Virus record (IMG/VR): IMGVR_UViG_2718218135_000001
Span: 32,001-96,000 of that record
DNA from: a virus
Lineage: Duplodnaviria; Heunggongvirae; Uroviricota; Caudoviricetes
DNA length: 64,000 nt
Direction: 5' to 3' (one strand)
The notes beneath the pieces are model-generated. The model made no database searches and was not told the origin of the DNA. It saw nothing but the letters and a program-made list of their open reading frames with translations. Made by a program: the position numbers and the translations under genes. This document shows, piece after piece, positions 2,007 to 49,361 of the stretch (position 1 is its first letter; each line of letters opens with the position of its first letter).

Positions 2007-2016
2007 GCCCAACCAA

Positions 2017-2037
2017 AGCCAGCACCGCCTGCTGGCT
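2017..2037 (+). terminator. hairpin after CDS (weak terminator candidate)
   Basis: agccagc-N7-gctggct stem, no clear T tract. Confidence 0.35.
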
Positions 2038-2140
2038 TAACTTCTCTGTAGCCGCAGGGAAGAACCACCTTTAGATAATTCATGTGCCTGAGCAATATGC
2101 TTTGTAGCCGTTTTTACACTGGTATTATTTACGCCATTGA

Positions 2141-2157
2141 GAAAACAATTTGTTTAC
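2141..2157. promoter_or_regulatory. AAACAA-N2-TTGTTT operator-like palindrome
   Basis: gaaaacaatttgtttac, 10 bp upstream of ATG 2167. Confidence 0.5.
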
Positions 2158-2166
2158 GGAGTGGTG

Positions 2167-2478
2167 ATGAATACTTCATTGGTGCTGGGTCTTGCTGAAG
2201 GCCAGGAGAGAAAAGAAAAACCAACCTTAATGGGGCATCTCACATTGCTGGATATCGTAGCGAATGGGACTTCTATCCGTCTGTTTCGTGAAAAAGCCAT
2301 TACCTTCGACGCGGGCAATTTTACGCGCTATGTGATGGTAGTTCGTCGCCAGCGTGGAAGAGGGTGGATGTCGGTCCAGAAAATGTGGCCAGAGGACCAG
2401 CTTGAACTGGCGCTGATGGAAGCCAACCGTGTCGCCCAACAAGAGATCCAACGAGCGTCTGTTCAGGCGGTAGCTTAA
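2167..2478 (+). CDS. hypothetical protein (103 aa)
   Basis: ATG with GGAGTGG RBS; followed by intrinsic terminator. Confidence 0.5.
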   Translation: MNTSLVLGLAEGQERKEKPTLMGHLTLLDIVANGTSIRLFREKAITFDAGNFTRYVMVVRRQRGRGWMSVQKMWPEDQLELALMEANRVAQQEIQRASVQAVA

Positions 2479-2513
2479 ACATGTGCAAGCAGTAGTTAGT
2501 CGAATGTACGACA

Positions 2514-2540
2514 GCCCCGCCAATCCTTCGGGGCTTTTTT
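2514..2540 (+). terminator. rho-independent terminator
   Basis: gccccg-loop-cggggc stem followed by TTTTTT. Confidence 0.7.
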
Positions 2541-2544
2541 GTAT

Positions 2545-2560
2545 TGTAAGTACTTACTTA
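2545..2560. promoter_or_regulatory. TAAGTA-N-TACTTA palindromic box (second motif family)
   Basis: tgtaagtacttactta immediately after the terminator and 40 bp before gene 2600. Confidence 0.5.
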
Positions 2561-2599
2561 TGATAATAAAATTAAAAATTAAACACTAAGGAGAGTGAA

Positions 2600-2995
2600 A
2601 TGACCGTTAAACGCGAAAATCTGACCCTGGATATGTATTATGCATCAGAGACGGAAAATGGAGACAAAGTTGCAAAAATTACAATTGTGCTACGCGATAA
2701 TACCTCCGGCGAAGAAGTTCACACCAGTACCTTAACTCGCACCGGCGAGGCCACAAAGGGGAAATATTCGGTGCGTTACCAAAGCATCAGTAATGCTTCT
2801 GACCCTTTACTGATAAAACTGGAAACTCATTTCCGTGGCGCGGATCAGACGTTGTTTGAAAATTTGATGAAAAAGGTCGATACGGTTTATACATCGAGTT
2901 TAAATACCAATAGTACCTGGATGGGACAACACGGTCTGCGAATAATCTCCGGCGAAAAGATCGACACCATTGTCCCTGAAAGCGTATTCGCTTAA
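2600..2995 (+). CDS. hypothetical protein (131 aa)
   Basis: strong RBS AAGGAGAG; terminator downstream. Confidence 0.55.
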   Translation: MTVKRENLTLDMYYASETENGDKVAKITIVLRDNTSGEEVHTSTLTRTGEATKGKYSVRYQSISNASDPLLIKLETHFRGADQTLFENLMKKVDTVYTSSLNTNSTWMGQHGLRIISGEKIDTIVPESVFA

Positions 2996-3007
2996 TCCTC
3001 TTTGAAT

Positions 3008-3032
3008 GGCGCGTAAACCGCGCCATTTTCTT
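3008..3032 (+). terminator. rho-independent terminator
   Basis: ggcgcg-taaac-cgcgcc hairpin followed by ATTTTCTT. Confidence 0.6.
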
Positions 3033-3041
3033 ATGCCCGAT

Positions 3042-3054
3042 AACAATTTGTTTT
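3042..3054. promoter_or_regulatory. AAACAA-N2-TTGTTT operator-like palindrome (half-degenerate)
   Basis: aacaatttgtttt upstream of gene 3113. Confidence 0.4.
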
Positions 3055-3112
3055 CTGCCTTATCTGATTTGTGAAAATGATTTCACTGAAGCAACTTAAT
3101 AAGGAAACCATC

Positions 3113-3487
3113 ATGGGACTTGATATCTATATCGAGACGCAGCCTAAAAACGATCTGAATAACGAGGCATCCAGAAAGCAGGTTGCTTACTTCCGTAAGT
3201 TCAATGCGCTCGTTGGGTGGATGGAGCGCAACGTAGGTGAAGTCGAAAATTGTGAGCTTTTAGAATTAACGATGAATGACATTTGTTTTCTGAAGGCTCA
3301 TTTGATGCACATAAACGAAAGTAATTGCGAAGAGTACTTGCCTACCCAGGAAGGTTTTTTCTTCGGCAGTCAGGAGTACGATGAAGGTTACTGGCATGAC
3401 GTGGATAAGCTGAAAAAACTTGTGGAAGACCTGATCAGGAACCACGACTTTCACAATAACAGACTGACGTTCCGTGCCTGGTGGTAA
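3113..3487 (+). CDS. hypothetical protein (124 aa)
   Basis: in-frame ATG with AAGGA RBS; the track ORF begins at GTG 3071. Confidence 0.5.
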   Translation: MGLDIYIETQPKNDLNNEASRKQVAYFRKFNALVGWMERNVGEVENCELLELTMNDICFLKAHLMHINESNCEEYLPTQEGFFFGSQEYDEGYWHDVDKLKKLVEDLIRNHDFHNNRLTFRAWW

Positions 3488-5875: not shown

Positions 5876-6189
5876 GATGTTAATCCTTAATAAGAGTAAA
5901 AATAAAATTCTTGTATCGTTAGCGTGTTCGCTTTCGATGTGAGTAATTATCGATATGCAGAAATTAAAATCAAGAGTTTTTTACGCGGGAGCGAAAAAAT
6001 TTTTATTCAATAAAAATCAAAGTCTTAGAAATAAAACGCGTTTTCTCGAAGGTGTTGCCTAAATAAATTCCCTATTCGGTCAATCACCCTTATATATTTA
6101 AAGTGAAATCGGGATTAGGGAAAATAAATATAACGGGAAGTGACACATAAAATAATAACCGGACTTAGCCGGTTATCACCCTTATAGAT

Positions 6190-6714
6190 TTAAAACGGTA
6201 AAATCCGTTCGACCCAATCGAAGAGAACTATCGTTCGTCCGCGCTCGCCAACTCTCATTGCGACCTGACAGGCATCAACGCCTAACGAACACCCCTCAAT
6301 TTCACGGCCATCCGCCATGTAGACCCTTATAGACTTTTGCGCCTCATGAGCTTGACGACAAATTTTGAAGAAATCGCGGCGAGATGGCCGATTGTCCACA
6401 TAGTCAGGGTGTACAGTGAGCCTACCTGTAAACATCTTGTCCACTTCGACAGGTGTAATTGTTTCTATGGTGCTAACTCGCTCCAATGGAAGACGAACAC
6501 GATGTTCTTTACTTCCTATAACGGGAGAAAGATCTAGCTTATTGCGTGCGGTAAGCAGACCAATAACGTAAAGACAAAACGTCTGACCATCATCGATCGT
6601 GACCCTTACAGGTATATTCCTTGCCCGTAGGAACTGCAAACTAAACTCCACGTTAGAGTAGTCGCGGGGCCAGACCTCTGCTGGGATGCCGTATGTAATG
6701 TCTGTGATCGTCAT
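6190..6714 (-). CDS. hypothetical protein (174 aa), translationally coupled to upstream gene
   Basis: start overlaps upstream stop (TAATG). Confidence 0.55.
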   Translation of the reverse strand: MTITDITYGIPAEVWPRDYSNVEFSLQFLRARNIPVRVTIDDGQTFCLYVIGLLTARNKLDLSPVIGSKEHRVRLPLERVSTIETITPVEVDKMFTGRLTVHPDYVDNRPSRRDFFKICRQAHEAQKSIRVYMADGREIEGCSLGVDACQVAMRVGERGRTIVLFDWVERILPF

Positions 6715-7304
6715 TAGTCTACCTTAAGTGGCGTGTCGAGAAGCCCAAACTTAAACTGCTTGCTACCTGCCACGAGGAAGGGGGCTTCGATGTAAATGGT
6801 TTTGTTGTCGATATCTGATTTTGCGGTCTTTTTGATGTCTTTTAGAAGCCTAATTGTTGCTGCGTTGTCCAGAACAAGTACTTTGCCGGTCGCATCATTG
6901 CCGATTTTGCCGTATGTCGTGAACGATTCATTACTGCCAACGCGGATATTAATCGGGCAACCGCTCTTGGCGATCTCATCACAGTACATAGTTCCATCAA
7001 TCACATTTAGTAGACCGTAGGTTGGAACAAGAGCCTTGCCAGAGTTGGTGCTTGTTCCTTCTTTGACAGCTGTACCCATGATTTGAAGGCGCATATGTTC
7101 TGATTCACCGGAAATCAGTGTTTCTTCCGCGTTATCGGAATACCTGAACCATACAGGTTGAACTGTTCCTCTGGCCTCGTATTTTACATTGTCTAGGGTA
7201 GTGAACTTGCTGTACGTTTTTTGCATGTCAGCAACCATATCTGACACTGCATTGGCAGAGAATGATAGAATATAGGTGGTTACTAAGATGGCTAAACGAG
7301 TCAT
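6714..7304 (-). CDS. hypothetical secreted protein (196 aa)
   Basis: N-terminal signal peptide MTRLAILVTTYILSFSANA; GAGGT RBS. Confidence 0.55.
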   Translation of the reverse strand: MTRLAILVTTYILSFSANAVSDMVADMQKTYSKFTTLDNVKYEARGTVQPVWFRYSDNAEETLISGESEHMRLQIMGTAVKEGTSTNSGKALVPTYGLLNVIDGTMYCDEIAKSGCPINIRVGSNESFTTYGKIGNDATGKVLVLDNAATIRLLKDIKKTAKSDIDNKTIYIEAPFLVAGSKQFKFGLLDTPLKVD

Positions 7305-7602: not shown

Positions 7603-8142
7603 TTATTTGTCCAGCACTTTGTACTTGTTCGTAATCAAACGCTCACCCTTTCTGGTAACTGTAAAACCAAACGGCGCTTTGCTGTTTTTACGTAACACGC
7701 TTTCAGCGAGCGCTTCATCGGTAGGTTGTATAGTTGAATTGTCTATCCAGTCGATGAGGGTAAGAAAGTTTAAAAGTTTCATGCTCGTGACGCCCATCTT
7801 ACAGGCTATGTCACGGACGGTACGAATCTGCCTGCATTTTGTTTCATGTGCTGCGATAGGTGTCTTTGAATTGTTTGGTGTCAGTAACGTATCCAGTGTA
7901 TTAAAGAACCCCCTTGCGGATTCAGACTTAATAAGACCTGAGTCGCTCATATCACACGCGATACGGTACAGAATATTGCTGTTGTTCATGAAGGGATAGT
8001 TCTCAACGAATCTGACGAATGCTTGTGCATTTTTCTCTCCGCATTTGTAATCCAGCGGATTATCTACGCGCCAGAAAAATGCACTGTTGTTTTTTGCGTC
8101 AAAGATATCAACAAATGGTAGTTCAGCTAAATAGTTCATCAT
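7603..8142 (-). CDS. hypothetical protein (179 aa)
   Basis: ORF; start codon lies inside a 12-bp inverted repeat (8137-8175). Confidence 0.5.
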   Translation of the reverse strand: MMNYLAELPFVDIFDAKNNSAFFWRVDNPLDYKCGEKNAQAFVRFVENYPFMNNSNILYRIACDMSDSGLIKSESARGFFNTLDTLLTPNNSKTPIAAHETKCRQIRTVRDIACKMGVTSMKLLNFLTLIDWIDNSTIQPTDEALAESVLRKNSKAPFGFTVTRKGERLITNKYKVLDK

Positions 8143-8204
8143 GTGCTCCTTTGTAACTTGACGAGCACATGATGAACTACGAAATAAGGGGAAAAAGTGG
8201 AAGA

Positions 8205-8483
8205 TTACGGCAGCCGTTTGAGAATATCGGCCAGATCTTCTTTGGTCATACCCGAGTTTTCGTAAATCTTCATGACCTTTTCACGAGCCTTTGCAGTAGT
8301 CTCTAATGACGTAGCTATCTTATCAAAATCACCCATCGTCATATTGGACAGCACCAGATTGATGATGTCTGCCTTTGACAGTTTTATGCTGCGTTCACGC
8401 AGTCGATTCTGAAAGGTCTCTAGTTTATCGTTTGCTTTTTCGGTTAACTTAACCTGGCAGTTAATAGCGCGTTTCTCGCTCAT
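8205..8483 (-). CDS. hypothetical protein (92 aa) coupled to helicase
   Basis: starts 3 nt after the helicase stop. Confidence 0.5.
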   Translation of the reverse strand: MSEKRAINCQVKLTEKANDKLETFQNRLRERSIKLSKADIINLVLSNMTMGDFDKIATSLETTAKAREKVMKIYENSGMTKEDLADILKRLP

Positions 8484-30835: not shown

Positions 30836-33800
30836 ATGGAACAGTTCAAGAAGAAAAAGTTACCGCTGTTTATTGCCGGTGCGGGTGGTAAAAAAAGTAG
30901 CAAAAGCTCCAGCCGTACACCGGTTGAAGCCGACGATACCGTAAATTCTCGTGCAATGGCCGCTATCCTCGATCTTCTTGGGGAAGGGGTAATTGGCGGC
31001 TTAGTAAATGGCGCAAGATCTATTTTTATCGACGATCTGCCGATTGTAAATGAAGACGGTTCCTCCAACTTCAGCGGAATCACATGGGATTTTCGCGACG
31101 GTTCACAAGACCAGACTCCAATGTCTGGCTTTGATTTCGTTGAAACGCCTAAATCCGTCAATATCCAGTTAAAAAAAACGCATTATGTAACGGTTTCAAT
31201 CGATAACGATGAAGCTGATCGGGTTCGTGTCATCATGAAGTTTCCTTCTTTGCGAAGCATAGATAAAAAAACTGGTGACACGAACGGTACGACTGTTGAG
31301 TACAAGTTCCAGATAGCAAATGGCGACTCAACATTTGTAGATGTGGTCGCGGAAGGTGAAAAAAGCGTTGGCATTAAGCTAACAGCAAAGAAGACCGGCG
31401 TTTATTACCGTAGCTATGAGCTGAAGCTGCCTAAGCCTGGACGAGCATACAAGGTTCGTGTAGTCCGTATTACCGATGATAACAGTAGCCAGTATCTCTA
31501 TAACGATACATGGGTGGATTCAATCGGGGAAATTGTCGATACACCGATGAACTATCCAAACTCTGTTTTGGTTGGATTGAAGGTAAACTCTGAGCAATTC
31601 GGCAGCACCATGCCATCTCGCTCTTATCTGGTGCGTGGCCTAAAAATTCGAGTACCTTCAAACTATAACGAGTCCAGTAACACTTACGCTGGGGTATGGG
31701 ATGGCACTTTTAAGCTGTTGTCTTCTTCGAACCCCGCGTGGATTCTCTTTGATTTGCTGACCAATGCTCGATATGGCCTTGGTCAGTATGTGTCGGAATC
31801 TATGATTGACCTTGGCCAGTTGTACCAGATTGGTCGATATTGTGACGAAGAGGTCGATGATGGCTTTGGTGGCAAAGAGAAACGCTTTGCAATCAATACG
31901 CAGATCACCAGTCGACAGGACGCATACCGGCTAATTCAGGATATTGCTGGAGCATTCCGCGGCATGGTGTTTTGGGCTGGTGGGATGGTTAACATCATGC
32001 AGGATAGCCCATCAGATCCGGTAATGATGTTTACCAACTCTAACGTCAAAGATGGATTGTTTACCTATAAAGGTTCTGCGCGTAAAGATCGCCCATCCGT
32101 TGCGCTCGTAACCTACAACAACAAGGAGGACGGTTATAAGCAAAACATCGAGTACGTTGAAGATCAGGACGCAATGCGCCGTTATGGTGAGCGTAAGACA
32201 GAAGTCGTAGCATTTGGCTGTACAAGCCGAGGGCAGGCTCACCGAGTTGGTTTGTGGCTTTTGTATACCGCCAGAATGGAGTCGGATGTAATTACATTTA
32301 CTGCCGGCTTAGACGCGTCATTTTTGATGCCTGGTGAAACCGTTCTGATTCAGAACAAATATCGCGCAGGCAAACGTAACTCAGGTCGAATTGTGGCGTT
32401 TACCAAAAACAGCGTCACACTCGATGCGCCTGTGTCGTTAGCCAAAGGCGGCTGCTTTATTCGAATACTGAATCAGGAAGGCAAAATCGTTGAACGCGAT
32501 GCTCTTGAAACTGGCGAAAATATAACAAAAGTTACGTTTTCAAAAGCCCTGTCGTCAGCGGAAACGCCTGTTTTGAACGGTGTCTGGACAATTACAGAAC
32601 CAGATCTCGAACCTATGCGCGTTCGCATCGTTAACATCGCTCAGGGGGAAACGTCGGGTAGCTTTGACATCACCGCTGTTGAAAACAATCCGTCTAAATA
32701 TGAGGCGATCGACAATGGTGCAACGCTTATCCCGCAGAATACGACGGTATTGGACCCGACTTACTCCAAGCCGTCTAATTTGCAAATCACTGAAGGGACT
32801 TATCTCTCAAGCCCGGGCAACCTGTCAGTAAAACTGACTGCAACATGGGAAGGGAAATCTCCAGAGTATTGGATCAGTTGGCGACGTTCTGATGCAAACA
32901 ATGTATCGAACTGGCAATCGACGCGTGTAACCGAAGAGCAATACGAAATCGTTAATGTCGCGGAGAATGGACGCTACGACTTCCAACTGTATGCGGTTTC
33001 ATTCAACGGTAAAAAAACAGAAATTATCAGCACCGTCTACAAAGTTCAGGGGACGATGACGCCGCCGGATGCACCGACTGCACTGACGGCCGTGGGCGAC
33101 TACCGCAACGTGATTCTGAATTGGGTTAACCCGGACTCAATCGACCTCGATCACATCAACGTGTATGCATCCCGGACCAACAACCTGGACACTGCAAAAC
33201 TAATTGCCGAAGCAGCCAGTACCACCTTTACGCACGCAGGTCTTGGAGATAGCGAAACTTGGTTCTATTGGGTTCGTGCAGCAAACAAACGCGGAATGTT
33301 GAGCCAGCCGAACTCCAATTTGGGCACTGAGGCGATGACGAAAGATGTTCTGTCTTTCCTGACCGGGAAGATCACTTCTTCGGAATTGGGGCAGGAACTG
33401 CTTGAGGAAATCGACACCAAAGCCTCGCAGGAAGCCGTCGACGCAATCAACAAGCAGATGGAAGAAAGCCTGAAAAGCCTTGATGACAAATTTACTGAGA
33501 CCGATCAACGGATTGAAGAAGCCCAAAACGTTCTTAGAACGGAAGTTTCTAATACTGCCAGCAAGGTGGAAGAGGCTCTTAAGGAGGTTGAAAACTCAAA
33601 TGCCGCATTAATTCAGTTGAAGGAAACTGTTTCAGAGCAGGACAAGGTCGTTGCTGGAGCGGTTGAGGCCGCGAATGCAGCACTGGACAATTCATCGGCT
33701 TTAGTTGCGGAGGAACGTGAGGCACGAGTCGAAGGCGACTTGGCGAACGCGAAAGAAATCGAGGCAATGAAGTCAACTGTAGATAGCAGTTTGGCCACCA

Positions 33801-35504: not shown

Positions 35505-35548
35505 TTGTGTGGGCAGGGACGCCCACACTTCAAGGAGTGAAAAAGAAC

Positions 35549-38500
35549 ATGTGGTACAGGGAAGGCACTGTTACATTTACAAAAGGAAGCGACACAATAT
35601 CAGGCATCGGAACACGTTGGAATTTGACCGAAAACGGCGTGTTACCGGGCATGATTGTCATTGGTCCTGACAATAAGTTGTATGAGGTCAAGCGCGTAAC
35701 CAGTGATAAGGTCATTGTTCTCTCAGAACCTTATACCGGCGAAACTCAATCTAAAGTTCCGTGCCGAATCATTACGACCTATGAAGGCGACTTAACTCAG
35801 TTTAGTGCGCGCTTTACTGCACTAATGTCGCGTATGTCGGCTGATTCCAAGTCCATGCGCAGTTGGTTGACCGCTCTGGATGATGTGACAATCGAGCGTG
35901 AAGACGGTACAGAAGTGACCGTTAAGCCGCTAATGCAGATCGTCAACGAGCATAACGAAAACGTTGAGTGGTATAAAAATAACACCGATGCGATTGAGGC
36001 CGCTGGAGACAAAGCTCGGGAGGCGGCGGCCAGTGCTGTCGCTGCGGCAGAAAGTGCCAACACTGCTGTAGAAAAAGCCTCTCAGGCATCTCAAAGTGCA
36101 TCCGCTGCGGTATCTTCACAAAGTGCGGCGAGTGAGAGTGCAGCTGCTGCGGAAAAATCTGAAACAAACGCAGAAGCGGCAAAAGAAGCGGCAGCAGAAT
36201 CAGCATCTGTGGCGTCGACTAAAGCATCGGAGGCAGCCACATCAGCGTCCAGTGCCTCTGCATCTAAGGATGCGGCTAAATTATCAGAGACTAACGCTTC
36301 ATCGAGTGCAAACGCGGCAGCATCATCAGCTACAGAAGCTGCAAATTCATGTAAGGCAGCAAAAGCATCAGAGACAAACGCAAAAGCGTCTGAAGCTGCT
36401 GCCGAACAGAGTGCATTGTCTGCAAACAGTTCGAAATCTGCGGCAGAAACGTCAGCGAGCGCGGCCTCAGTAAGCGCGGATAGTGCTTCATCAAGTGCAA
36501 CGTCGGCAGAAAAGTCTGCGGAAAGCGCTTCGTTATCTGCGGCAAATGCCACCGCTAAAGCGACAGAGGCGACGAAACAGGCAACAGCTGCGGAAAAGTC
36601 AGCAGAGGCGGCAAAATCTTCTGAAACCAATGCAAAGACTTCAGAAGACAATGCCGCTGCTTCTAAGGAGACAGCAGCCGAATCTGCAAGCTCTGCCTCT
36701 GTTTCAGCTTCCTCGGCGTCATCTTCAAAAGATGAGGCCGCTCGCCAGGCGTCAGCGGCAGCAGAGAGTGCGACAACGGCATCAACGAAGGCGACGGAAG
36801 CGGCAGACAGTGCGACGGAGGCTGCGCAGAGCAAAAATGCGGCAGAATCCGCGGCAACACGCTCTGAGACAGCGGCAAAACGAGCTGAGGATATTGCATC
36901 CGCCGTGGCGCTTGAGGATGCGAGCACGACGAAAAAGGGGGTAGTACAGCTCAGCAGTGCGACCAACAGCACGTCTGAAACGCTGGCGGCAACGCCAAAA
37001 GCCGTTAAGGCCGCGTATGACCTGGCTAACGGGAAATACACCGCACAGGATGCAACGACAGCACAGAAAGGGATAATCCAGCTAAGCAGCGCGACCAACA
37101 GCACGTCTGAAACGCTTGCCGCGACACCAAAGGCAGTAAAAGCAGCCAATGACAATGCTGAGAAACGTCTGCAGAAAGATCAGAACGGTGCGGATATCCC
37201 TGGCAAAGATACCTTTACGAAAAATATTGGTGCCTGCCGTGCCTTCGGTGGGTCAGTAAGCACAACAACAGGAAACTGGACGACTGCACAGTTTATCGAG
37301 TGGCTGGATTCTCAGGGAGCATTTAACCATCCATACTGGATGTGCAAGGGTTCCTGGTCTTATGGCAATAATAAAATCATTACTGATACTGACTGCGGTA
37401 ATATTCATCTCGCCGGAGCTGTCATTGAAGTAATGGGGATAAAGTCAGCGATGACGATCCGCATTACCACACCGACCACCTCCACTGGTGGTGGAACAAC
37501 TAACGCCCAGTTTACCTATATTAATCACGGAACAGATTATTCACCTGGCTGGCGAAGGGACTATAACTCCAGAAATAAGCCAACGGCATCAGAGATCGGG
37601 GCGTTACCGTCAGGTGGAACAGCAGTATCATCAGTTAATCTGGCTTCAAAAGGTCGGGTAACCGCGCTGACAGACAATACGCAGGGGGCAGCAGGTCTTG
37701 AGTTATACGAGGTGTATAACAACGGATATCCAACAGCGTATGGAAATATCATTCACCTGAAAGGGATGACAGCCGTTGGCGAAGGTGAGTTACTCATCGG
37801 CTGGAGTGGTACAAGCGGTGCTCATGCTCCGGCATTTATTCGTTCACGACGGGATACGACCGACGCAAACTGGTCGCCGTGGGCGCAGCTTTACACCTCG
37901 GCTCATCCTCCTGCAGAGTTTTATCCAGTCGGTGCACCAATCCCGTGGCCATCAGATACCGTTCCGTCTGGCTATGCCCTGATGCAGGGGCAGACTTTTG
38001 ACAAATCTGCATACCCGAAACTTGCAGTTGCTTATCCGTCAGGCGTGATCCCTGATATGCGTGGCTGGACGATTAAGGGCAAGCCCGCCAGTGGTCGGGC
38101 CGTATTATCTCAGGAACAGGACGGCATTAAATCGCACACCCACAGCGCCAGCGCATCCAGTACGGATTTGGGGACGAAAACCACATCGTCGTTTGATTAC
38201 GGAACCAAATCCACGAATAACACCGGGGCGCATACCCATAGTATTAGCGGGACCGCAAATAGTGCCGGTGCGCACCAACACAAGAGTTCCGGTGCATTTG
38301 GTGGCACGAACACGAGCATTTTCCCTAATGGTTATACCGCGATTTCAAATCTAAGCGCGGGGATTATGAGCACAACAAGCGGTAGTGGCCAGACTCGTAA
38401 TGCAGGGAAGACATCATCAGATGGTGCTCATACCCACTCGCTGTCCGGCACAGCTGCATCTGCAGGTGCACACGCACATACTGTCGGTATTGGTGCTCAT

Positions 38501-38614
38501 ACGCACTCGGTTGCGATTGGCTCACATGGACACACCATCACCGTTAACGCTGCTGGTAACGCGGAAAACACCGTCAAAAACATCGCATTTAACTATATTG
38601 TGAGGCTTGCATAA
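35549..38614 (+). CDS. side tail fibre protein
   Basis: two copies of tail-fibre repeat [21 protein letters not shown]; long A/S/E-rich shaft; C-terminal HxH motifs. Confidence 0.8.
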
Positions 38615-39195
38615 TGGCATTCAGAATGAGTGAACAACCACGGACCATAAAAATTTATAATCTGCTGTCCGGAACTAATGAATTTATTGGTGAAGGTGAT
38701 GCATATATTCCGCCTCATACAGGTCTGCCAGCAAACAGTACCGATATTGCACCGCCAGATATTCCGGCAGGCTTCGTGGCTGTTTTCAACAGTGATGAGG
38801 CATCGTGGCATCTCGTTGAAGATCATCGGGGAAAAACCGTCTATGACGTGGCTTCCGGCGACGCGTTATTTATTTCTGAACTCGGTCCGTTACCGGAAAA
38901 TGTTACCTGGTTATCACCGGATGGGGAATATCAGAAGTGGGACGGCACATCCTGGGAGAAGGATGAGGAAACAGAAAAATTGTTTCAGGTACGGGAAGCG
39001 GAAGAAACAAAAAAAAGTCTGATGCAGGTAGCCAGCGAGCACATTGCGCCACTTCAGGATGCTGTAGATTTGGAGATTGCAACGGAGGAAGAAGCATCGT
39101 TGCTGACTGCATGGAAGAAGTATAGAGTTTTATTGAACCGCATTGACACATCAACGGCACCGGATATTGACTGGCCAACAATACCAGCAGAGTAA
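38614..39195 (+). CDS. tail fibre assembly protein (Tfa-like)
   Basis: 193 aa directly after fibre gene, TAATG overlap. Confidence 0.75.
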
Positions 39196-39267: not shown

Positions 39268-39328
39268 GCAAATGGTTAAAATATGATATAAACACGCCAT
39301 CCCGATTTGACTTTTCATGGAGGAAAAC

Positions 39329-39652
39329 ATGTCGAACGAGATGGCGGGAGTCACAACTGAACAGGTTGAGCGCATCGTCTCAATCGTTGCTCGGGAAGTC
39401 GTAGGCAAATTAGGTAAAGAAATACGCGAGGAAATTGGTCAGGAGGTCAATGACCAGCTCAAAACCTACTTTGGCGATATGACGCCCGCACAACACAGCA
39501 TTCAGCACTCCAATCTGGACAAACTTCTTAACCGGCTCGACACCATCTCCAGTGGGTTCTTTGGCGGCATTGTTTCGAAACTAACGTCGTTCATTATTAC
39601 CGTACTGCTTTTAGGATTGGCCGCGTATGGCGTAAAAAATGGATTGCAATAA
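39329..39652 (+). CDS. small membrane protein, possible holin
   Basis: single C-terminal hydrophobic segment; GGAGGA RBS; alternative start 39317. Confidence 0.4.
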   Translation: MSNEMAGVTTEQVERIVSIVAREVVGKLGKEIREEIGQEVNDQLKTYFGDMTPAQHSIQHSNLDKLLNRLDTISSGFFGGIVSKLTSFIITVLLLGLAAYGVKNGLQ

Positions 39653-39665
39653 CAGGAGATCAAGG

Positions 39666-40358
39666 ATGAAAACTCCGAGAGGCATTCGTAATAACAACCC
39701 CGGTAATCTTGATAAAGGAGCGCCGTGGCAGGGCTTAGTCAACAACTCTTCAGAACCGCGCTTCTGCACGTTTAAAGACCCCGTGTGGGGGATTCGGGCA
39801 TTGGCAGTGACACTCATTACTTACCACGACAAGCGCCGCGCAAAAGATGGCTCCAGCATTGATACGATCCGCGAAGTCATCGAACGCTGGGCGCCTCCAC
39901 ATGAGAACAACACTTTGGCTTATGTGAACGAGGTATCCAAAGCCGTTGGAGTAGCACCAGATATGATTATCGATCTGCATGACTACGAGACCTTAAGACC
40001 GCTGGTAGAGGCGATCATTAGACATGAAAATGGCCGAGGTCCGCTGAAAACCCCCAATAGCTGGTATACACCAGAACTTATCGAAGAAGGGCTGCGACGT
40101 GCCGGCATTGTCAAACCGGTAAAGGCTGTAAAAGCCGTTCCTGTAACAAAAGAAACCACAGGTGCTACAGTCACTGCAGGTATTGGCCTTGCACAAATTG
40201 CTGACGTTATGCCTCAAGTTTCTGCCGCAATGGATAAAGCGCAAGGCAATATCTCCAGTGGAGATACGGTACGCATCATCTTTGGCGTAGCTACCATTCT
40301 TGTGGCAGCATTCATTGCCTGGTCCCAGGTTCGCAAGCACCAGAAAGGATTAGTATAA
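39666..40358 (+). CDS. lysis-cassette protein with C-terminal membrane anchor (possible cell-wall hydrolase)
   Basis: GIRNNNPGNL motif, C-terminal TM helix; function not resolved. Confidence 0.4.
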   Translation: MKTPRGIRNNNPGNLDKGAPWQGLVNNSSEPRFCTFKDPVWGIRALAVTLITYHDKRRAKDGSSIDTIREVIERWAPPHENNTLAYVNEVSKAVGVAPDMIIDLHDYETLRPLVEAIIRHENGRGPLKTPNSWYTPELIEEGLRRAGIVKPVKAVKAVPVTKETTGATVTAGIGLAQIADVMPQVSAAMDKAQGNISSGDTVRIIFGVATILVAAFIAWSQVRKHQKGLV

Positions 40359-40360
40359 GT

Positions 40361-40612
40361 ATGTTCGACGGCCTGTTGTTCAAAATGAAATCCGCTTTGT
40401 TCACTCTGGCCGCCGTCATTCTAGTCCTTGTCGGCGCATACTCCTATGGCGGGTATATGGCCAGACGCAGTATGGAAGAGAAAGAACGGCGGGAAGATAA
40501 CAAGCGTCTTCAAAGCACAGTGGAAGTGGTGAATGAGACGAACAGTGAAATACGTCAGAAAGATGCTTCTGCCATTCATCGTGAGCTGCATGATAAGTGG
40601 GTGCGTAATTAA
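40361..40612 (+). CDS. i-spanin (Rz-like)
   Basis: N-terminal TM helix plus charged coiled-coil region; embedded lipoprotein ORF. Confidence 0.5.
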   Translation: MFDGLLFKMKSALFTLAAVILVLVGAYSYGGYMARRSMEEKERREDNKRLQSTVEVVNETNSEIRQKDASAIHRELHDKWVRN

Positions 40613-40748
40613 GCCACAGACCACCAGCGTGTTGTTCTGCGATGGCGCTGAACCTATTTATATCAGCAATGACGATGTAATGACCGAAGAAACCGAACGC
40701 CAAATCCTTTTTCACAATACGATGGGAGAGAGAGTTTGCGGTTGGTGA
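40563..40748 (+). CDS. o-spanin lipoprotein (Rz1-like)
   Basis: signal peptide with lipobox ISGC; overlaps Rz-like 3' end in another frame. Confidence 0.5.
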   Translation: MLLPFIVSCMISGCVIKPQTTSVLFCDGAEPIYISNDDVMTEETERQILFHNTMGERVCGW

Positions 40749-40780
40749 TGTCGAAGTTCCCCTCAAATGAGGGGGACACA

Positions 40781-41302
40781 TTATTCTTCGAACAATTTTT
40801 CGATAGATTTTGTTGGATAGAACAAAGAACGATCGTTGTTACCAACCAGCTGGATAAAGCCCAAACTTTTATAAAACGCCCTAGCTTTATCGTTCAACGC
40901 CTCAACGAAAAGCCCATGAATGCCTACCGCAAGAGATGCATTGTACACAACACGCATTGCGTGAGTTACAAGCATTGAGCCAAACCCCTGACCTTGAAGA
41001 GATTTGTCCAAAGCCAGTCTGCCTAAAGTGATACTTGGGACATTCCGATAAGGCACTTTCTTTTGCTGACTCTTTGAAGGTAAGGTTTCTTTCTCAAAGC
41101 AGCTGCCTGACAAAGTGTAATAACCTAATACCTTTGGTATTTCTTCTTTAGTGCAAAGCACATAAGCGCGAAGAATTTTTCCTTCATGCTGTCTTTTTAA
41201 GTGGTTGGTCAAAAATGCGTTTAGTGACTCTTCGCCGCAATCAAAACCGTTTAGATCATAATCTTTCTCTCCAGAGAAAATCTCGATCGTCGTATTGCTC
41301 AC
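40781..41302 (-). CDS. GNAT-family acetyltransferase toxin (TacT-like)
   Basis: GNAT motifs; paired with upstream small antitoxin. Confidence 0.7.
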   Translation of the reverse strand: MSNTTIEIFSGEKDYDLNGFDCGEESLNAFLTNHLKRQHEGKILRAYVLCTKEEIPKVLGYYTLSGSCFEKETLPSKSQQKKVPYRNVPSITLGRLALDKSLQGQGFGSMLVTHAMRVVYNASLAVGIHGLFVEALNDKARAFYKSLGFIQLVGNNDRSLFYPTKSIEKLFEE

Positions 41303-41309
41303 GAGTAAA

Positions 41310-41579
41310 TTACTCCATGCTTTTCAGACGATTGGCAGCTCGTTTCAGCTTGTCGTTCGGTGCCGGAGGATTGCTTATAGCATCCATAACCAGATTCCAG
41401 GACTCTTCACTTAGAACCAGTCTACGGTGTTGCTCTATCACCTTCACGGCACGTTCGGATGCACTGCTAACCATGAACTGGGTAATGCTCTGGTTAGACA
41501 TTGCGGCAGCTTCCTCGATGATGCTTTTATCGTCATCGGTTAATCTCAAATCGATGCGCTGCTTTTTCAGTGCGGACAT
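41310..41579 (-). CDS. RHH antitoxin (TacA/DUF1778-like)
   Basis: 89 aa upstream partner of the GNAT toxin. Confidence 0.7.
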   Translation of the reverse strand: MSALKKQRIDLRLTDDDKSIIEEAAAMSNQSITQFMVSSASERAVKVIEQHRRLVLSEESWNLVMDAISNPPAPNDKLKRAANRLKSME

Positions 41580-41849
41580 GTGTACCCCCTGATGGCCGGT
41601 GATGTAGGAAGGCCATCATTGCTCTCTATTTAAACTGAGTTTTCGACTCAAAGGTTATTTAACTGGGCTATAGCCCATTGCGTATGTGTCATCAAATTGT
41701 GTACGGCAATTTACCGTACTCGTAATATAGAGGTGATTGTCACTTTTTTCAACAGACAAATGAAAACAGTTACTAGCAATAGGCAATAACAACCTACTAA
41801 ATAACCTTTACACCGCAGCCGTAGGCATTTAGGCTATATCGCATATAAG

Positions 41850-41863
41850 AAAACAAGTTGTTT
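41850..41863. promoter_or_regulatory. AAACAA-N2-TTGTTT operator-like palindrome
   Basis: aaaacaagttgttt, 36 bp upstream of parA-like ATG. Confidence 0.5.
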
Positions 41864-41898
41864 CATACGACAATAATTCACGCAAAGGAAACTCACCA

Positions 41899-42564
41899 AT
41901 GACCAAGATCATTGTGGTTGGCGGCACAAAAGGCGGCCCAGGCAAATCTACCGTTGCCCAGCAAATTGCGGTATGTCTCAAAGTTAAAAAGAAAAAGAAG
42001 GTTCACGTCACCGATATCGATATCCAGCGCACCACGACCAGCTGGTGTGAAGACCGTCGCCAGAACGAAGATCTTGAACTGATCCCGTTCGCTTATGTGC
42101 AGGACGACATCGTCAAACATCTTAAATCGCTTCAGGGGCGAACTGATTATGTAGTGGTAGATGCTGGTGGCTTTGACTCCGAAATTCAGCGTCTGGCGAT
42201 GCTTATGGCTGATGTAATCATCATCCCGCTGCGCCCTAAACGTCGTGATTTGAAATCTCTGCGTGATATCGACCCGATTATCGACAACGTTCGCAATGTG
42301 AACGAGAAAGTTAAGATCCGCGCGGTAATAAACCAGTGTCCGTCATTGCCTTCCCAGGTATCACGTATTCTGGCCGCGAAGGAAATTGTCGAAACTTTCG
42401 GCATCGAGGCTGCGCCGGTCAATCTGTACAACCGTAACGTTTATGACGATGCGGAAGAGGCAGGTCGTTCTATCTTTGAAATGACTGGCGCTGAACGCGA
42501 TAAGAAGGCAGAAGCCGAGTTCGAAGAGTTTGTAGATTACATCTTGAGTCTGGAGGAAGAATAA
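41899..42564 (+). CDS. parA: ParA-family partition ATPase (small, type Ib-like)
   Basis: deviant Walker A GGTKGGPGKST; 221 aa. Confidence 0.85.
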   Translation: MTKIIVVGGTKGGPGKSTVAQQIAVCLKVKKKKKVHVTDIDIQRTTTSWCEDRRQNEDLELIPFAYVQDDIVKHLKSLQGRTDYVVVDAGGFDSEIQRLAMLMADVIIIPLRPKRRDLKSLRDIDPIIDNVRNVNEKVKIRAVINQCPSLPSQVSRILAAKEIVETFGIEAAPVNLYNRNVYDDAEEAGRSIFEMTGAERDKKAEAEFEEFVDYILSLEEE

Positions 42565-42923
42565 TGTCCATGAGAATGGGAGACCTTGCAAAGCGCAATG
42601 AGCCTAAAGAACCGGCCAAAAGCAGCACTCCACTGCGCCAGCCAGTCAGACCGCAGGGGCGTCCGACTCGTGGCAAAGAGAAAATTAAAAGTCGCACAAT
42701 GTCACTGGAGGACGAATACTTCGAACTGCTGGAAATGATGAAGTTCATCCCTCGTTTCGAGAAGTTCACCCGTTCTGACGTGATTCGCGCCGCCATTTTC
42801 CATCTGGCAGAGAAGTCACCGCAGGAAATCGAGGACATCGTGAAACTTAACGAGGCGATCACAGCTGCCGATGTCACGATGCGTACCGATGAAATCAAAC
42901 GAGAGTTGATGAAGAAAGGTTAA
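42564..42923 (+). CDS. small partition/centromere-binding protein (ParG-like)
   Basis: 119 aa, basic N-terminus, ATGA overlap with parA-like gene. Confidence 0.55.
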   Translation: MSMRMGDLAKRNEPKEPAKSSTPLRQPVRPQGRPTRGKEKIKSRTMSLEDEYFELLEMMKFIPRFEKFTRSDVIRAAIFHLAEKSPQEIEDIVKLNEAITAADVTMRTDEIKRELMKKG

Positions 42924-42975: not shown

Positions 42976-43743
42976 TTATGCCGCGCTAACACTATGTTCA
43001 TTCCTAACCACCCCAACCTTCACAAAAGGGCTGCCGTAGCTTGGTGGCTTCTTGATTAATTTGCCTACATACAGTTTTCTAATATGCTCATCGGCTATTC
43101 TGCCAACAAATTCATAACGTTTTGTGTCGGGGCCAAGAGCTATATCCCTTGTAAAGTACTGCTGAGAACCGGCTTTGACCCAGCATTCAATCTGATAAAC
43201 TTCCATTATCAGGCCCCCATATGTAGCGTAGGCATATTTGAGATTCTCGTCTCTTGGAACCTTTGCCCATACGCCACGCGTAGCTTCATATAATGCCAGA
43301 GCGGACATTCCTGACTTGTAGGTGCTGTTTAGCAGGAAGGCAAGACCGGCGTGCTCAGGAGCAATTTCAGTTTCCTCTTGCAGCACTAAGTGATGGTAGG
43401 CGTCCAGTGATATTCTGCCCATCATGGAACCACTTCCTCGTACCTTATTCGTAAGCTCTCCGACACCCATAAGGTCGATGCATGTCGCCTCAACAAGTTT
43501 GGCTGTGGTTTCATCCATACCATGACGAAGAATATCTATGCCTAATTTTTTATTAGCCAAAAGTTCTTTGATCCGCATGGATTTGGGAGAGTCATCGGGA
43601 TACTTGATGTGATCGAGACAACGAGTCGATTTGCCTTTTCCTATGTAAAACGGTCTTTTCATCTTGTCTTCTGTATCATAGAGACAGTAAACATAGTATT
43701 TAGCCTTATCCAATGATCTCGCGTATACCGATAAATCGTCCAT
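42976..43743 (-). CDS. GIY-YIG nuclease-domain protein
   Basis: N-terminal YYVYCLYD ... RPFYIGKGKSTRCLDH. Confidence 0.6.
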   Translation of the reverse strand: MDDLSVYARSLDKAKYYVYCLYDTEDKMKRPFYIGKGKSTRCLDHIKYPDDSPKSMRIKELLANKKLGIDILRHGMDETTAKLVEATCIDLMGVGELTNKVRGSGSMMGRISLDAYHHLVLQEETEIAPEHAGLAFLLNSTYKSGMSALALYEATRGVWAKVPRDENLKYAYATYGGLIMEVYQIECWVKAGSQQYFTRDIALGPDTKRYEFVGRIADEHIRKLYVGKLIKKPPSYGSPFVKVGVVRNEHSVSAA

Positions 43744-46152: not shown

Positions 46153-46239
46153 AAAAGAAGGCGTGGGGAAACACTCTCCACGCCTGTCTCCAGAAGAGAA
46201 CAAATTTCTCTTTTGCCAAAACCACAAAAGAAAAAACAC

Positions 46240-47424
46240 ATGAGCCTTTATGGTATTCAAATACCGAGGCTTATCAAGATATTACCTGCAAAAAACAGGG
46301 GTAAGAACGTGAGCGACTTGAAAGAATTACTGACCGAGCTGGATTTTGAGCAATGGCTCGATATGGAAGGGATCATCTACCGTCGTGGTGGAGTCAGTAC
46401 TCGCGGACGAGAGGTCAACATTAAAGAGTGTCCGGTATGCGGCAGCTCAAACTGGAAGGTTTATTTCAACCTGACCAGTGGTGTCGGCAAATGCTTTGCA
46501 GGTGATCATCCCGAAGAGATTCAGTTCAACAAGCTGGTCTTCCTAAAGCATTACAGCGGCAAATCTCGTCGCGATTTTGAAGAGTACGTCCAGAACGCGC
46601 TGATCTCACAAGGATGGGCACCGAAGAAGGAAGAGATCGTACTGGCCAGCAAGGTTGAACTGGAAGGACCGGTAGCTCTCCCGCGCCATTACGAACTCCC
46701 CATTGACGGTCGTCTTCCTGATTATCTGGTGGAGCGCCAGATTTCCCCGGAGCTGGCCAAATACTTTGATCTGCGTTACTGCGTCGAAGGCAAGCACGCA
46801 TACGTCGATCCGTACACAGACCAGGTCAAAGGACAGGTATTCGATATGCGAATACTGATACCGGTTTACGATCTGGATGGCGTGATGAAGACCTTCCAGG
46901 GTCGTGACATTACCGGTGCAGCAGAACGCCGGTATCTGTTCCCCATGCAGCTGCCAGCATCGGGTAAATTTCTCTACAACGGCCACAATGCAGTCGGCAA
47001 ACAGACTGTAGTTGTCTGTGAGGGGGCGTTCGATGTTATGGGGGTTAAACGAGCTATTTTTGATGAAGAAACATTACGCGATTACGTGGAACCGATAGGA
47101 ACGTTCGGGATGCATCTATCTGGTAACACCACTCAGGATGCAGAAGATCAGTTGGGCGCGTTCCTGACGCTCAAGGCGCGTGGATTACGTAATGTGATTA
47201 TGATGTGGGATAGTGAAAAGCAAGCTATACGCAACACGATGGCCGCAGCCAGGCGACTGACCAGTATCGGTCTTAATGTCAAAGTAGCGTGTTTGGGCGA
47301 GGAAGGACTCGATCCCGGCGATGCGACACCGGGGCAGATTATCAAAGCCTACTATTGCGCAAAACCTTATTCACGACAGCTTGAACTTTTAAGCAAGGTA
47401 AAAGGCATAGCTGCATTAGTTTGA
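46240..47424 (+). CDS. DNA primase (zinc-binding plus TOPRIM)
   Basis: CPVCGSSNW...C zinc motif, TOPRIM-like VVVCEGAFDV; start uncertain. Confidence 0.7.
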   Translation: MSLYGIQIPRLIKILPAKNRGKNVSDLKELLTELDFEQWLDMEGIIYRRGGVSTRGREVNIKECPVCGSSNWKVYFNLTSGVGKCFAGDHPEEIQFNKLVFLKHYSGKSRRDFEEYVQNALISQGWAPKKEEIVLASKVELEGPVALPRHYELPIDGRLPDYLVERQISPELAKYFDLRYCVEGKHAYVDPYTDQVKGQVFDMRILIPVYDLDGVMKTFQGRDITGAAERRYLFPMQLPASGKFLYNGHNAVGKQTVVVCEGAFDVMGVKRAIFDEETLRDYVEPIGTFGMHLSGNTTQDAEDQLGAFLTLKARGLRNVIMMWDSEKQAIRNTMAAARRLTSIGLNVKVACLGEEGLDPGDATPGQIIKAYYCAKPYSRQLELLSKVKGIAALV

Positions 47425-47557: not shown

Positions 47558-47935
47558 CTACGCCGTACCATACAATCTACGTAACGTGGCAACGACAGTA
47601 GATACGGATACCTCTCCGGTCGCAGCCCCCACAGTAAGCTCTGCCAGTTCTGGTGAATCATATACCTGCACACCGTTACGGCGCAGAAATAACAACGCAC
47701 TGTTTAGCGCGGTACGCTTATTGGCATCATTGAATATATGCCCTCTCGCAGTAGCCACCAGGTAAGTTGCGGAGACTTCGAAAAGGTCGGTAATCTCTTC
47801 ATATGCAACTCTGGCCTGGACTCTCCCGATAATAGCCTCAGCTCTTCCCGAATCTGACATGCCTGGCAGGCCGCCGTAGCGGCTTATATTCGCATCATGA
47901 ATTGCAGTAAGCTCTTCCGGTGATATATGCCTCAT
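47558..47935 (-). CDS. doc: Doc toxin (Fic family)
   Basis: near-identical to phage P1 Doc as recalled; Fic-type motif [11 protein letters not shown]. Confidence 0.9.
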
Positions 47936-48156
47936 TATCGGTTAACCAGTTTCTTATTGGTGGTGTCCAGAGTGTCAAACAGGGATGCGAATTCAGCATC
48001 CAGCGCCGCTTTTTTGTAGGCTTCGAAAGTGGCCTTGCTGACAATTACAGCTGGCTCACGGCCTCTACGGGTGATTTCAACCTCTTCTCCGGCTTCAACA
48101 TTGTTGAGCACTTCGGTAAGATTGCTGCGTGCGGTACGGAAGTTAATAGATTGCAT
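47935..48156 (-). CDS. phd: Phd antitoxin
   Basis: matches P1 Phd as recalled; stop overlaps doc start. Confidence 0.9.
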
Positions 48157-48340
48157 AAACATCTCGTGTACTCAATATGTGTACGCAATTATAGAGCTTA
48201 ATTGCCCACTACTCCATCATTTTATCCAGTGCGCCTTATACCTCCACTCTGAAGGACGGGGTTTTAGGGCGCTCTGGATAAAAACACACGTACTTTCTCT
48301 CCGAAAGTACGTGAAAAGTAGCGACTAACCACCATGCTCA

Positions 48341-49351
48341 TTAGTCGTAGGATACGGCAAATATCGCCTGGCCTTGAACTTCCCCAGGCTGTAAAGCTTC
48401 CTCTTTCACGCGAACGTATTTTGCGGTAATCGGGAAGATGTACTGTTCCTGAATAGCCGCCATTTTAGGTAATCTGTTCATCAGGGTATCGCCCAGCTTT
48501 AACGGTGTCGTTGCATTACCATTGTAAATCTGGAACCCTACACCCTTAGCACCATCGGACAATGTATTTTTCAATATTGTTCCACTATCATCCCACACAC
48601 CACGCTCAACTTTAAAAGTCACTGGATTAGTCGTGACGTTATAGACACTATCGCAATTTAGGACCAGATCTACAGAACCTGATTTTGAGTTATTGGCAGA
48701 TAGCATCTCACTTATCGTTGTTTCTGGTATTCTTATTTCGTAAGTCGGTTGCGAGAAACGACAGGTTGTGGGTTTGTGTTTAACAGTAATGGTTAGTTTT
48801 TGTTCGTAAGCATCGCCTTTATTTAACAACCCCAATAAATTGCACAATATCCATGAAAAAATATTTGAACTGCATTGATTATCAGATAAAAAGTTACCCG
48901 CTGGCTTTTTTAATTCGAATGAATCCCCCTCTACCGCTTCACCATGATCACTTCTATATGTAGTTGGTGGTATATATGAGGCCGTTAACTTCAGTTGTTT
49001 ATTATTAATGGTATCAGCAACAGAATAGGTTTTAGGCGACAGAAGCGAACCACTCGTTTCTACAGGAAATCCATCAGCCTCAAGCTTTAATTTAATAAAA
49101 ATAGACTTATTGCTGGAGCCATCTTTCATTTCAACAATATAGTCATCTAACGTTGTTGCAAAATACATCTTATCCCCCCTCGAGTTACATTCATAAGATC
49201 CTTGCAGGTTGGGATTAAAACTTACTATTGTTGAATCCCTTGTTAAGTCCAGTGTAATTGGTTGAGTTGCTGTCCAAGTTCCCTTAGGGGTACATTTCGC
49301 CTGCCCAAAAAATGGAATAATCAACAAAAACAAAAACCAATATTTCTTCAT
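48341..49351 (-). CDS. fimbrial adhesin / minor subunit
   Basis: signal peptide MKKYWFLFLLIIPFFGQA; last gene of chaperone-usher operon. Confidence 0.6.
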   Translation of the reverse strand: MKKYWFLFLLIIPFFGQAKCTPKGTWTATQPITLDLTRDSTIVSFNPNLQGSYECNSRGDKMYFATTLDDYIVEMKDGSSNKSIFIKLKLEADGFPVETSGSLLSPKTYSVADTINNKQLKLTASYIPPTTYRSDHGEAVEGDSFELKKPAGNFLSDNQCSSNIFSWILCNLLGLLNKGDAYEQKLTITVKHKPTTCRFSQPTYEIRIPETTISEMLSANNSKSGSVDLVLNCDSVYNVTTNPVTFKVERGVWDDSGTILKNTLSDGAKGVGFQIYNGNATTPLKLGDTLMNRLPKMAAIQEQYIFPITAKYVRVKEEALQPGEVQGQAIFAVSYD

Positions 49352-49361
49352 AAAAAATCCT

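Follow-up and report, generated by a model that had tools for sequence, protein, structure and literature searches.

A predicted AtaRT/KacAT-type toxin–antitoxin operon in an accessory cassette of an SSU5-like phage-plasmid

We characterized a toxin–antitoxin (TA) gene pair in a 64-kb window of viral DNA (positions 32,001–96,000 of IMG/VR record IMGVR_UViG_2718218135_000001; coordinates are those of the window unless a fetched locus is named). The window is an SSU5-like phage-plasmid, in keeping with the plasmid lifestyle proposed in the original prediction for this stretch: the TA region matches ~106-kb plasmids of Escherichia coli and Escherichia fergusonii, typed as IncFIB, with 99.8% identity and shares 91% DNA identity with Escherichia phage Cyrano and phage CMS-2020a, and the flanks of the cassette that holds the pair reach ~80–93% against Salmonella phage SSU5. 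The open reading frame (ORF) list gives a two-gene operon layout on the minus strand, in which an antitoxin gene (41310–41579; 89 amino acids (aa), ATG start) lies 5′ of a toxin gene (40781–41302; 173 aa, GTG start) across a gap of 7 nt. The antitoxin is AtaR/KacA-like, belongs to the DUF1778/TacA family (Pfam TacA1/DUF1778 PF08681; E 3.5e-26; score 91 bits, cut-off 21 bits) and is identical to protein WP_001711191.1 of plasmid pRHB41-C15_2. Its best match among PDB sequences was KacA (5zgn_A; E 2.5e-41; 69/87 residues identical, 79%), and AtaR was likewise matched over the full length (6ajm_C; E 5e-40; 66/88, 75%); the DNA-binding ribbon-helix-helix (RHH) part is N-terminal and the toxin-wrapping part C-terminal. 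The toxin, a predicted AtaT/KacT-like GNAT aminoacyl-tRNA N-acetyltransferase, exceeded the gathering scores of four GNAT families in Pfam and aligned to AtaT of E. coli O157:H7 from residues 1–172 on 1–172 (6gts_A; E 3.7e-79), with 119/172 residues identical (69%) and no gaps, and to KacT with an E value of 2e-76 (5zgn_C). After AtaT and KacT, the next acetyltransferase chains in the PDB scored E 1e-21 or weaker, down to 4e-4; these chains are unnamed in the search output and presumably include the Salmonella TacT toxins and ItaT. NCBIfam yielded no match to a specific AtaT or AtaR model; its matches were to generic GNAT and RHH models, none of which reached its cut-off. The Pfam and PDB scores place the gene pair far beyond chance, and by the PDB search scores the module is assigned to the AtaRT/KacAT subgroup, with a GNAT toxin of clade A. 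ORFs, strand and Pfam domains agree exactly with the small RHH-like antitoxin followed by a GNAT gene that had been proposed at 40781–41579. The further description of the pair as a TacAT-type, tRNA-acetylating module stands at the level of the family (domains, residues and operator) but not for TacAT proper: the alignment to TacT/AtaT-family toxins that the same prediction had suggested as a check gave the ungapped 69% identity to AtaT, and TacT is distant, at E ~1e-21 to 1e-11.

Residue roles were taken for the toxin from mutagenesis of AtaT (PMC7595197) and for the antitoxin from KacA (PMC6698736). The acetyl-CoA P-loop of the toxin (Q/R-x-x-G-x-G/A) reads LQGQGFG and contains G108, and alignment to AtaT shows that the catalytic Tyr144 is kept; both are active-site residues of the toxin family, whose loss would, according to the original prediction, have spoken against it. 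Also kept from AtaT are Y85, R95, F30, L27, H34 and R37, as well as S76, K77, S78, K81, K82, P84, L136 and K165. In AtaT, G108D and Y144F abolished or reduced toxicity, and mutation of Y85 or R95 abolished or strongly reduced it (PMC7595197). Five positions of the tRNA path and amino-acid pocket are changed relative to AtaT (R40E, N41G, K79Q, R71K and A26S). The antitoxin N terminus (MSALKKQRIDLRL) contains R8, D10 and R12, the residues with which KacA reads operator DNA and of which R8A and R12A abolish binding (PMC6698736). Of its toxin-interface residues, M65 and I68 are kept, and the residues at 70 and 77 agree with AtaR (N70, K77) and not with KacA (Q70, R77). As a separate observation, the pRHB41-C15_2 toxin (fetched locus 6182–6703) differs from the window toxin, beside an identical antitoxin, by F107L in the acetyl-CoA loop GQGFG and by S146R, two residues past the catalytic Tyr144; these changes may represent toxin-attenuating variation.

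Motif search and likeness to the KacAT operator identified a predicted operator palindrome upstream of the antitoxin gene (41701–41719; GTACGG-N7-CCGTAC with an AT-rich centre; gene strand, GTACGGTAAATTGCCGTAC). The motif has no other match in the window, where 0.05 would be expected even with one mismatch allowed, and it was found in 5/5 fetched loci that bear the TA pair and in 0/3 relatives without it. It also lies 5′ of ataR in EDL933 (GTACGGTGACATACCGTAC) and 5′ of a third, 69%-identical plasmid variant. The duplex crystallized with KacA4KacT2 (5ZGN; AAATGTACGGTTATTAACCGTACATGA) is likewise built as GTACGG-N7-CCGTAC around an AT-rich centre, and that palindrome spans the kacAT transcription start (PMC6698736). 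Here, too, the palindrome spans the predicted transcription start: it begins 4 nt past the −10 box of a sigma70-like promoter (41724–41752, minus strand; TTGAAA, 17-nt spacer, TATATT) that matches the consensus at 10/12 positions. Neither promoter hexamer and neither operator half-site differs between the window and Cyrano, across a cassette that has diverged by ~10% overall. The promoter was called because of this conservation and its position beside the operator and not on its scan score; the counts from the promoter and terminator scan were not above shuffle expectation.

The operator is separated from the start codon by a leader of ~120–138 nt (41580–41700, minus strand), delineated by reading the sequence, its repeats and its conservation in Cyrano. 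The leader carries three short, Cyrano-conserved hairpins or palindromes (GGGCTATAGCCC, GAGTCGAAAACTC and TGATGGCC-N13-GGCCATCA), the last of which directly precedes a GGGGG Shine–Dalgarno sequence. Folding of the leader (~148 nt) gave no support for a structured RNA (z −1.58; 12/200 shuffles as good), and an Rfam scan of 40300–42100 (E ≤ 1) returned no leader match; a plant microRNA model in that scan (19.9 bits, E 0.54, gathering score 54 bits) was dismissed as chance. At the other end of the operon, a GC-rich hairpin (40756–40777, plus strand; 9 pairs, 6 of them GC) separates the convergent Rz1 gene (stop 40748) and toxin gene (stop 40781) and is likely to terminate transcription of the lysis operon and to act as a buffer against convergent read-through. 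Because this hairpin is kept in Cyrano and absent from SSU5, PhiR41_1 and the Klebsiella plasmid pJN2-26, we regard it as part of the cassette.

Comparison by blastn and alignment delimited a swappable cassette of ~1.04 kb (40749–41791) that comprises, besides the toxin and antitoxin genes, the terminator hairpin, leader, operator and promoter. SSU5, PhiR41_1 and pJN2-26 are homologous up to ~40730–40749, at the Rz1 stop, and again from ~41788–41803, 5′ of parA, which marks the pair as an autonomous cassette in a variable slot; its GC content is ~42–44%, compared with 48–50% in the flanks. We considered a 12-nt inverted repeat (41650–41661/41798–41809), whose right arm sits at the right boundary of the cassette, as a recombination scar and judged it to be a chance match, the right arm being common to all relatives and the left arm unconserved in Cyrano. 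The slot is differently filled in relatives without the TA cassette. SSU5 (fetched locus 2028–3420) and PhiR41_1 (2015–3430) carry a diverged gene pair, phrog_2594 and phrog_3307, the larger proteins of which share 31% identity, and pJN2-26 (fetched locus 2004–2830) has a single gene, phrog_28020. None of these slot genes matched Pfam or PADLOC, and PHROGs placed them only in families of unknown function. It is possible, if rather doubtful, that the stretch from Rz1 to the parA promoter serves as a cassette-exchange hotspot of SSU5-like phage-plasmids, perhaps reserved for stabilization or defence cargo.

Both genes appear to be maintained. Relative to the Cyrano allele, the toxin shows 41.5 synonymous and 9.5 non-synonymous differences (ratio of non-synonymous to synonymous rates (dN/dS), 0.047) and the antitoxin 12 and 2 (dN/dS 0.039), which indicates strong purifying selection on both, and neither gene is frameshifted in the window or the Cyrano lineage. 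The cassette is present in 144 PLSDB plasmids, IncFIB-type phage-plasmid records that are mostly ~100–230 kb and of which 130 are typed as non-mobilizable; many of the E. coli and E. fergusonii plasmids show the 99.8% identity given above. Among 5426 complete E. coli genomes, 151 contain the cassette at full length. The same search (1927 places in 1854 genomes) found 1627 chromosomal places in all; the chromosomal matches listed have ~65% DNA identity and are all annotated ataT/ataR, except for one partial N-acetyltransferase. In this search, chromosomal ataRT occurs in roughly 30% of complete E. coli genomes, and these summary counts, which are not resolved by genome, suggest that plasmid and chromosomal copies co-occur roughly at random. 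As the two share operator half-sites, it is conceivable that the phage-plasmid module cross-regulates with chromosomal ataRT or is ‘anti-addicted’ by it. The Cyrano orthologues CYRAN_26 and CYRAN_27 are transcribed in lysogens, the toxin at 35× and the antitoxin at 60× the local prophage background (PMC9928086), which fits a function in the lysogenic phase.

The closest relatives of the module are well characterized structurally. AtaR–AtaT of E. coli O157:H7 EDL933 (6GTS, 6AJM, 6AJN and 7CHD) has the same gene order, proteins of 88 and 175 aa (89 and 173 aa here) and the same GTACGG/CCGTAC half-sites with a 7-bp spacer. It differs in being chromosomal, between livJ and panM, at ~65% DNA identity, and in having its operator ~30 nt from the start codon, whereas ~130 nt of leader intervene here. 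KacA–KacT of Klebsiella pneumoniae HS11286 (5ZGN, 5XUN), also chromosomal, has in common with the antitoxin here R8/D10/R12 and M65/I68, and its crystallized operator (GTACGGTTATTAACCGTAC) shows the same architecture, with the AT-rich centre over the transcription start. The Cyrano cassette (OV696614) is orthologous and occupies the same Rz1–parA slot (91% DNA and 94% toxin protein identity), with promoter, operator and leader hairpins conserved, and represents a second allele lineage (toxin dS ~0.5). Its antitoxin is annotated 12 codons longer (101 aa; fetched locus 6711–7016), a 1-nt deletion in a hairpin loop having brought an upstream ATG into frame; the alignment of AtaR and KacA from residue 1 favours the 89-aa start. 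Shigella GmvAT, which stabilizes the plasmid pINV, is a precedent for a plasmid-borne member of the family. It is listed as a pINV system among GNAT/RHH pairs (PMC6698736) and, together with TacAT1–3 of Salmonella Typhimurium and ItaRT, has the same DUF1778 RHH and GNAT aminoacyl-tRNA acetyltransferase architecture and chemistry; these systems are distant in sequence and belong to other clades, whose tRNA specificity is narrower or different (PMC9177977).

Taken together, gene order, homology, residues and operator argue that the locus is very probably a complete, functional type II TA operon of the AtaR–AtaT/KacA–KacT group, which an SSU5-like phage-plasmid carries as a self-contained accessory cassette. 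Its mechanism is drawn by homology from the solved systems, the sequence determinants of the individual steps being seen here. Its own promoter would drive the operon, with the antitoxin gene transcribed first. The toxin would act as a dimeric GNAT enzyme that uses acetyl-CoA to acetylate the α-amino group of charged tRNAs, barring them from peptide-bond formation and stopping translation. As for other clade A toxins, the targets would be Gly-tRNA and tRNAs bearing a hydrophobic amino acid or Met: in vivo, AtaT and KacT modify Gly-tRNA and Trp-, Tyr-, Phe- and Met-charged tRNAs (PMC9177977), and Pth counteracts toxins of this clade (PMC9177977, PMC7595197). The antitoxin is predicted to dimerize through its N-terminal RHH and to wrap the toxin with its C terminus, blocking acetyl-CoA binding and toxin dimerization in a T–A2–A2–T heterohexamer, the two RHH dimers of which would bind the two GTACGG half-sites over the transcription start and repress the operon until excess toxin lifts repression (conditional cooperativity). 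In KacAT, the RHH dimers of the heterohexamer repress at the half-sites and excess toxin de-represses (PMC6698736). The likely role of the module, we infer, would be to arrest, post-segregationally, cells from which the low-copy plasmid-prophage has been lost, adding to a phd–doc module and a ParA gene on the same element. Several points weigh against this interpretation. The promoter scan returned 2 sites against 3.0 expected and is thus not above chance on its own; the ~130-nt leader and its conserved hairpins are without counterpart in chromosomal ataRT; the five changed positions in the tRNA path and pocket could shift target preference away from that of AtaT; the absence of the cassette from relatives such as SSU5 and pJN2-26 means that it is dispensable for the plasmid lifestyle; and addiction itself is a role that we infer, if reasonably.

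The surroundings of the cassette agree with the original prediction, which had placed the pair next to a lysis cassette and described it as a second TA system besides phd–doc. Immediately upstream on the plus strand are a 111-aa ORF (39317–39652), assigned by PHROGs to a family of unknown function and annotated as holin in its Cyrano and SSU5 counterparts, followed by genes for an endolysin (39639–40358), the Rz spanin (40361–40612) and the Rz1 spanin, which overlaps Rz (40533–40748), all three supported by PHROGs and by the Cyrano and SSU5 annotation. Farther upstream, the tail-fibre protein (35507–38614, plus strand; 1,035 aa) has a long Ala/Ser/Glu-rich low-complexity centre, and the tail-fibre assembly gene (38614–39195, plus strand) and the adjoining fibre end share ~90–92% DNA identity with lambda stf/tfa, which points to a mosaic, exchanged host-range module at 35507–39195. 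Downstream of the cassette come a plus-strand gene for a ParA ATPase and then a small partner ORF of 119 aa that is translationally coupled to it (42564–42923, plus strand). This ORF has no Pfam match and its Cyrano counterpart (fetched locus 7967–8326) is labelled ‘RelE/ParE putative toxin’. This label is probably wrong, given that the ORF occupies the position in which one would expect a ParB/ParG-like centromere-binding partner. Past parA and this ORF, a 255-aa GIY-YIG protein (42976–43743, minus strand) matches Pfam LEM-3_GIY-YIG (E 5.5e-7) and, over nearly its full length, the PADLOC model PD-T4-3 (E 1.3e-23), which makes it a candidate anti-phage defence gene. PhiR41_1 and the E. fergusonii plasmid also have the PD-T4-3-like gene, which is replaced in Cyrano; SSU5-group phage-plasmids are reported to carry PD-T4-3, in E. 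coli and Shigella, and other defence systems (2025 preprint, bioRxiv 10.1101/2025.09.12.675607). The phd–doc module (47558–48162, minus strand) was found by Pfam just after a primase-like gene (46213–47424) and comprises phd (47935–48162; 75 aa; PhdYeFM, E 6.6e-13) and doc (47558–47935; 125 aa; Fic/Doc, E 8e-9), the latter with the Doc motif HIFNDANKR. An E. fergusonii plasmid that is otherwise 99.8% identical has a TPR protein and IS1 in this position, which identifies it as a second variable accessory site. Adjoining phd–doc, a 376-aa ORF (48341–49471, minus strand) with an apparent signal peptide (MKKYWFLFLLIIPFFGQA) past an N-terminal extension is possibly an adhesin or fimbrial-type surface protein.

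We weighed post-segregational addiction against other readings of the same genes. The module may instead have been selected for defence or competition, acting in abortive infection or exclusion; it would be triggered as the labile antitoxin decays after host transcription has been shut off by an incoming phage or a rival element. Its place in a variable accessory slot, ~1.4 kb from the PD-T4-3-like candidate, would suit such a role, as would the defence systems reported in SSU5-group phage-plasmids (bioRxiv 10.1101/2025.09.12.675607) and the expression of the Cyrano orthologues in lysogens. We nevertheless consider it unlikely, given that neither TA protein matches any PADLOC-DB v2 model (E ≤ 0.01), that the AtaRT/KacAT literature cited here reports no anti-phage activity and that a low-copy plasmid element already needs stabilization. 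Persistence phenotypes of TA overexpression are generally debated, which counts against the quite improbable alternative that the module is kept for a benefit to the stressed host, through transient growth arrest and tolerance of antibiotics or macrophages. What speaks for this alternative is that two reports tie TacT in Salmonella and KacT in Klebsiella to persistence and tolerance (PMC5959882, PMC6698736) and that the Cyrano host LF82, in which the TA genes are expressed, is a macrophage-surviving strain (PMC9928086); the Cyrano paper itself, however, lists the pair only as a moron (PMC9928086).

It is very improbable that the genes are no toxin pair at all but a small regulator beside a harmless N-acetyltransferase, acting for example on proteins or small molecules, or else a decayed remnant. 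The NCBIfam matches (generic, RimI-like and other GNATs, all below cut-offs), a PGAP name that reads only ‘GNAT family N-acetyltransferase’ and the reported acetylation of a protein, EspB, by AtaT (PMC7957018) would be compatible with this. They are set against a 69% identity to AtaT, the toxicity of which is proven, and the retention of all key residues, the pairing with a cognate DUF1778 antitoxin and the operator of the family, and a dN/dS of ~0.04 without frameshifts in either lineage. The reading of the locus as an AtaRT/KacAT-type TA operon, with addiction as its likely role, is thus retained.

The pair is ordinary and already known: PGAP annotates it as ‘GNAT family N-acetyltransferase’ with ‘DUF1778’ or ‘TacA family antitoxin’, the Cyrano record as ‘KacT acetyltransferase-type toxin’, and the Cyrano paper lists it among the morons expressed in lysogeny (PMC9928086). 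The finding has little significance past correct annotation. As by-products, it gives the cassette a precise boundary, assigns an operator and shows the slot between spanin and parA genes to be exchangeable. The last of these could steer the search for new stabilization or defence genes in relatives, the unknown slot genes of which could be new TA or exclusion systems if such cargo is what the slot is reserved for. For the phage-plasmid itself, the analysis indicates at least two independent type II TA modules (AtaRT-like and phd–doc) beside a partition system, a combination that would help to account for how stably E. coli, E. fergusonii and Shigella carry these ~106-kb elements.

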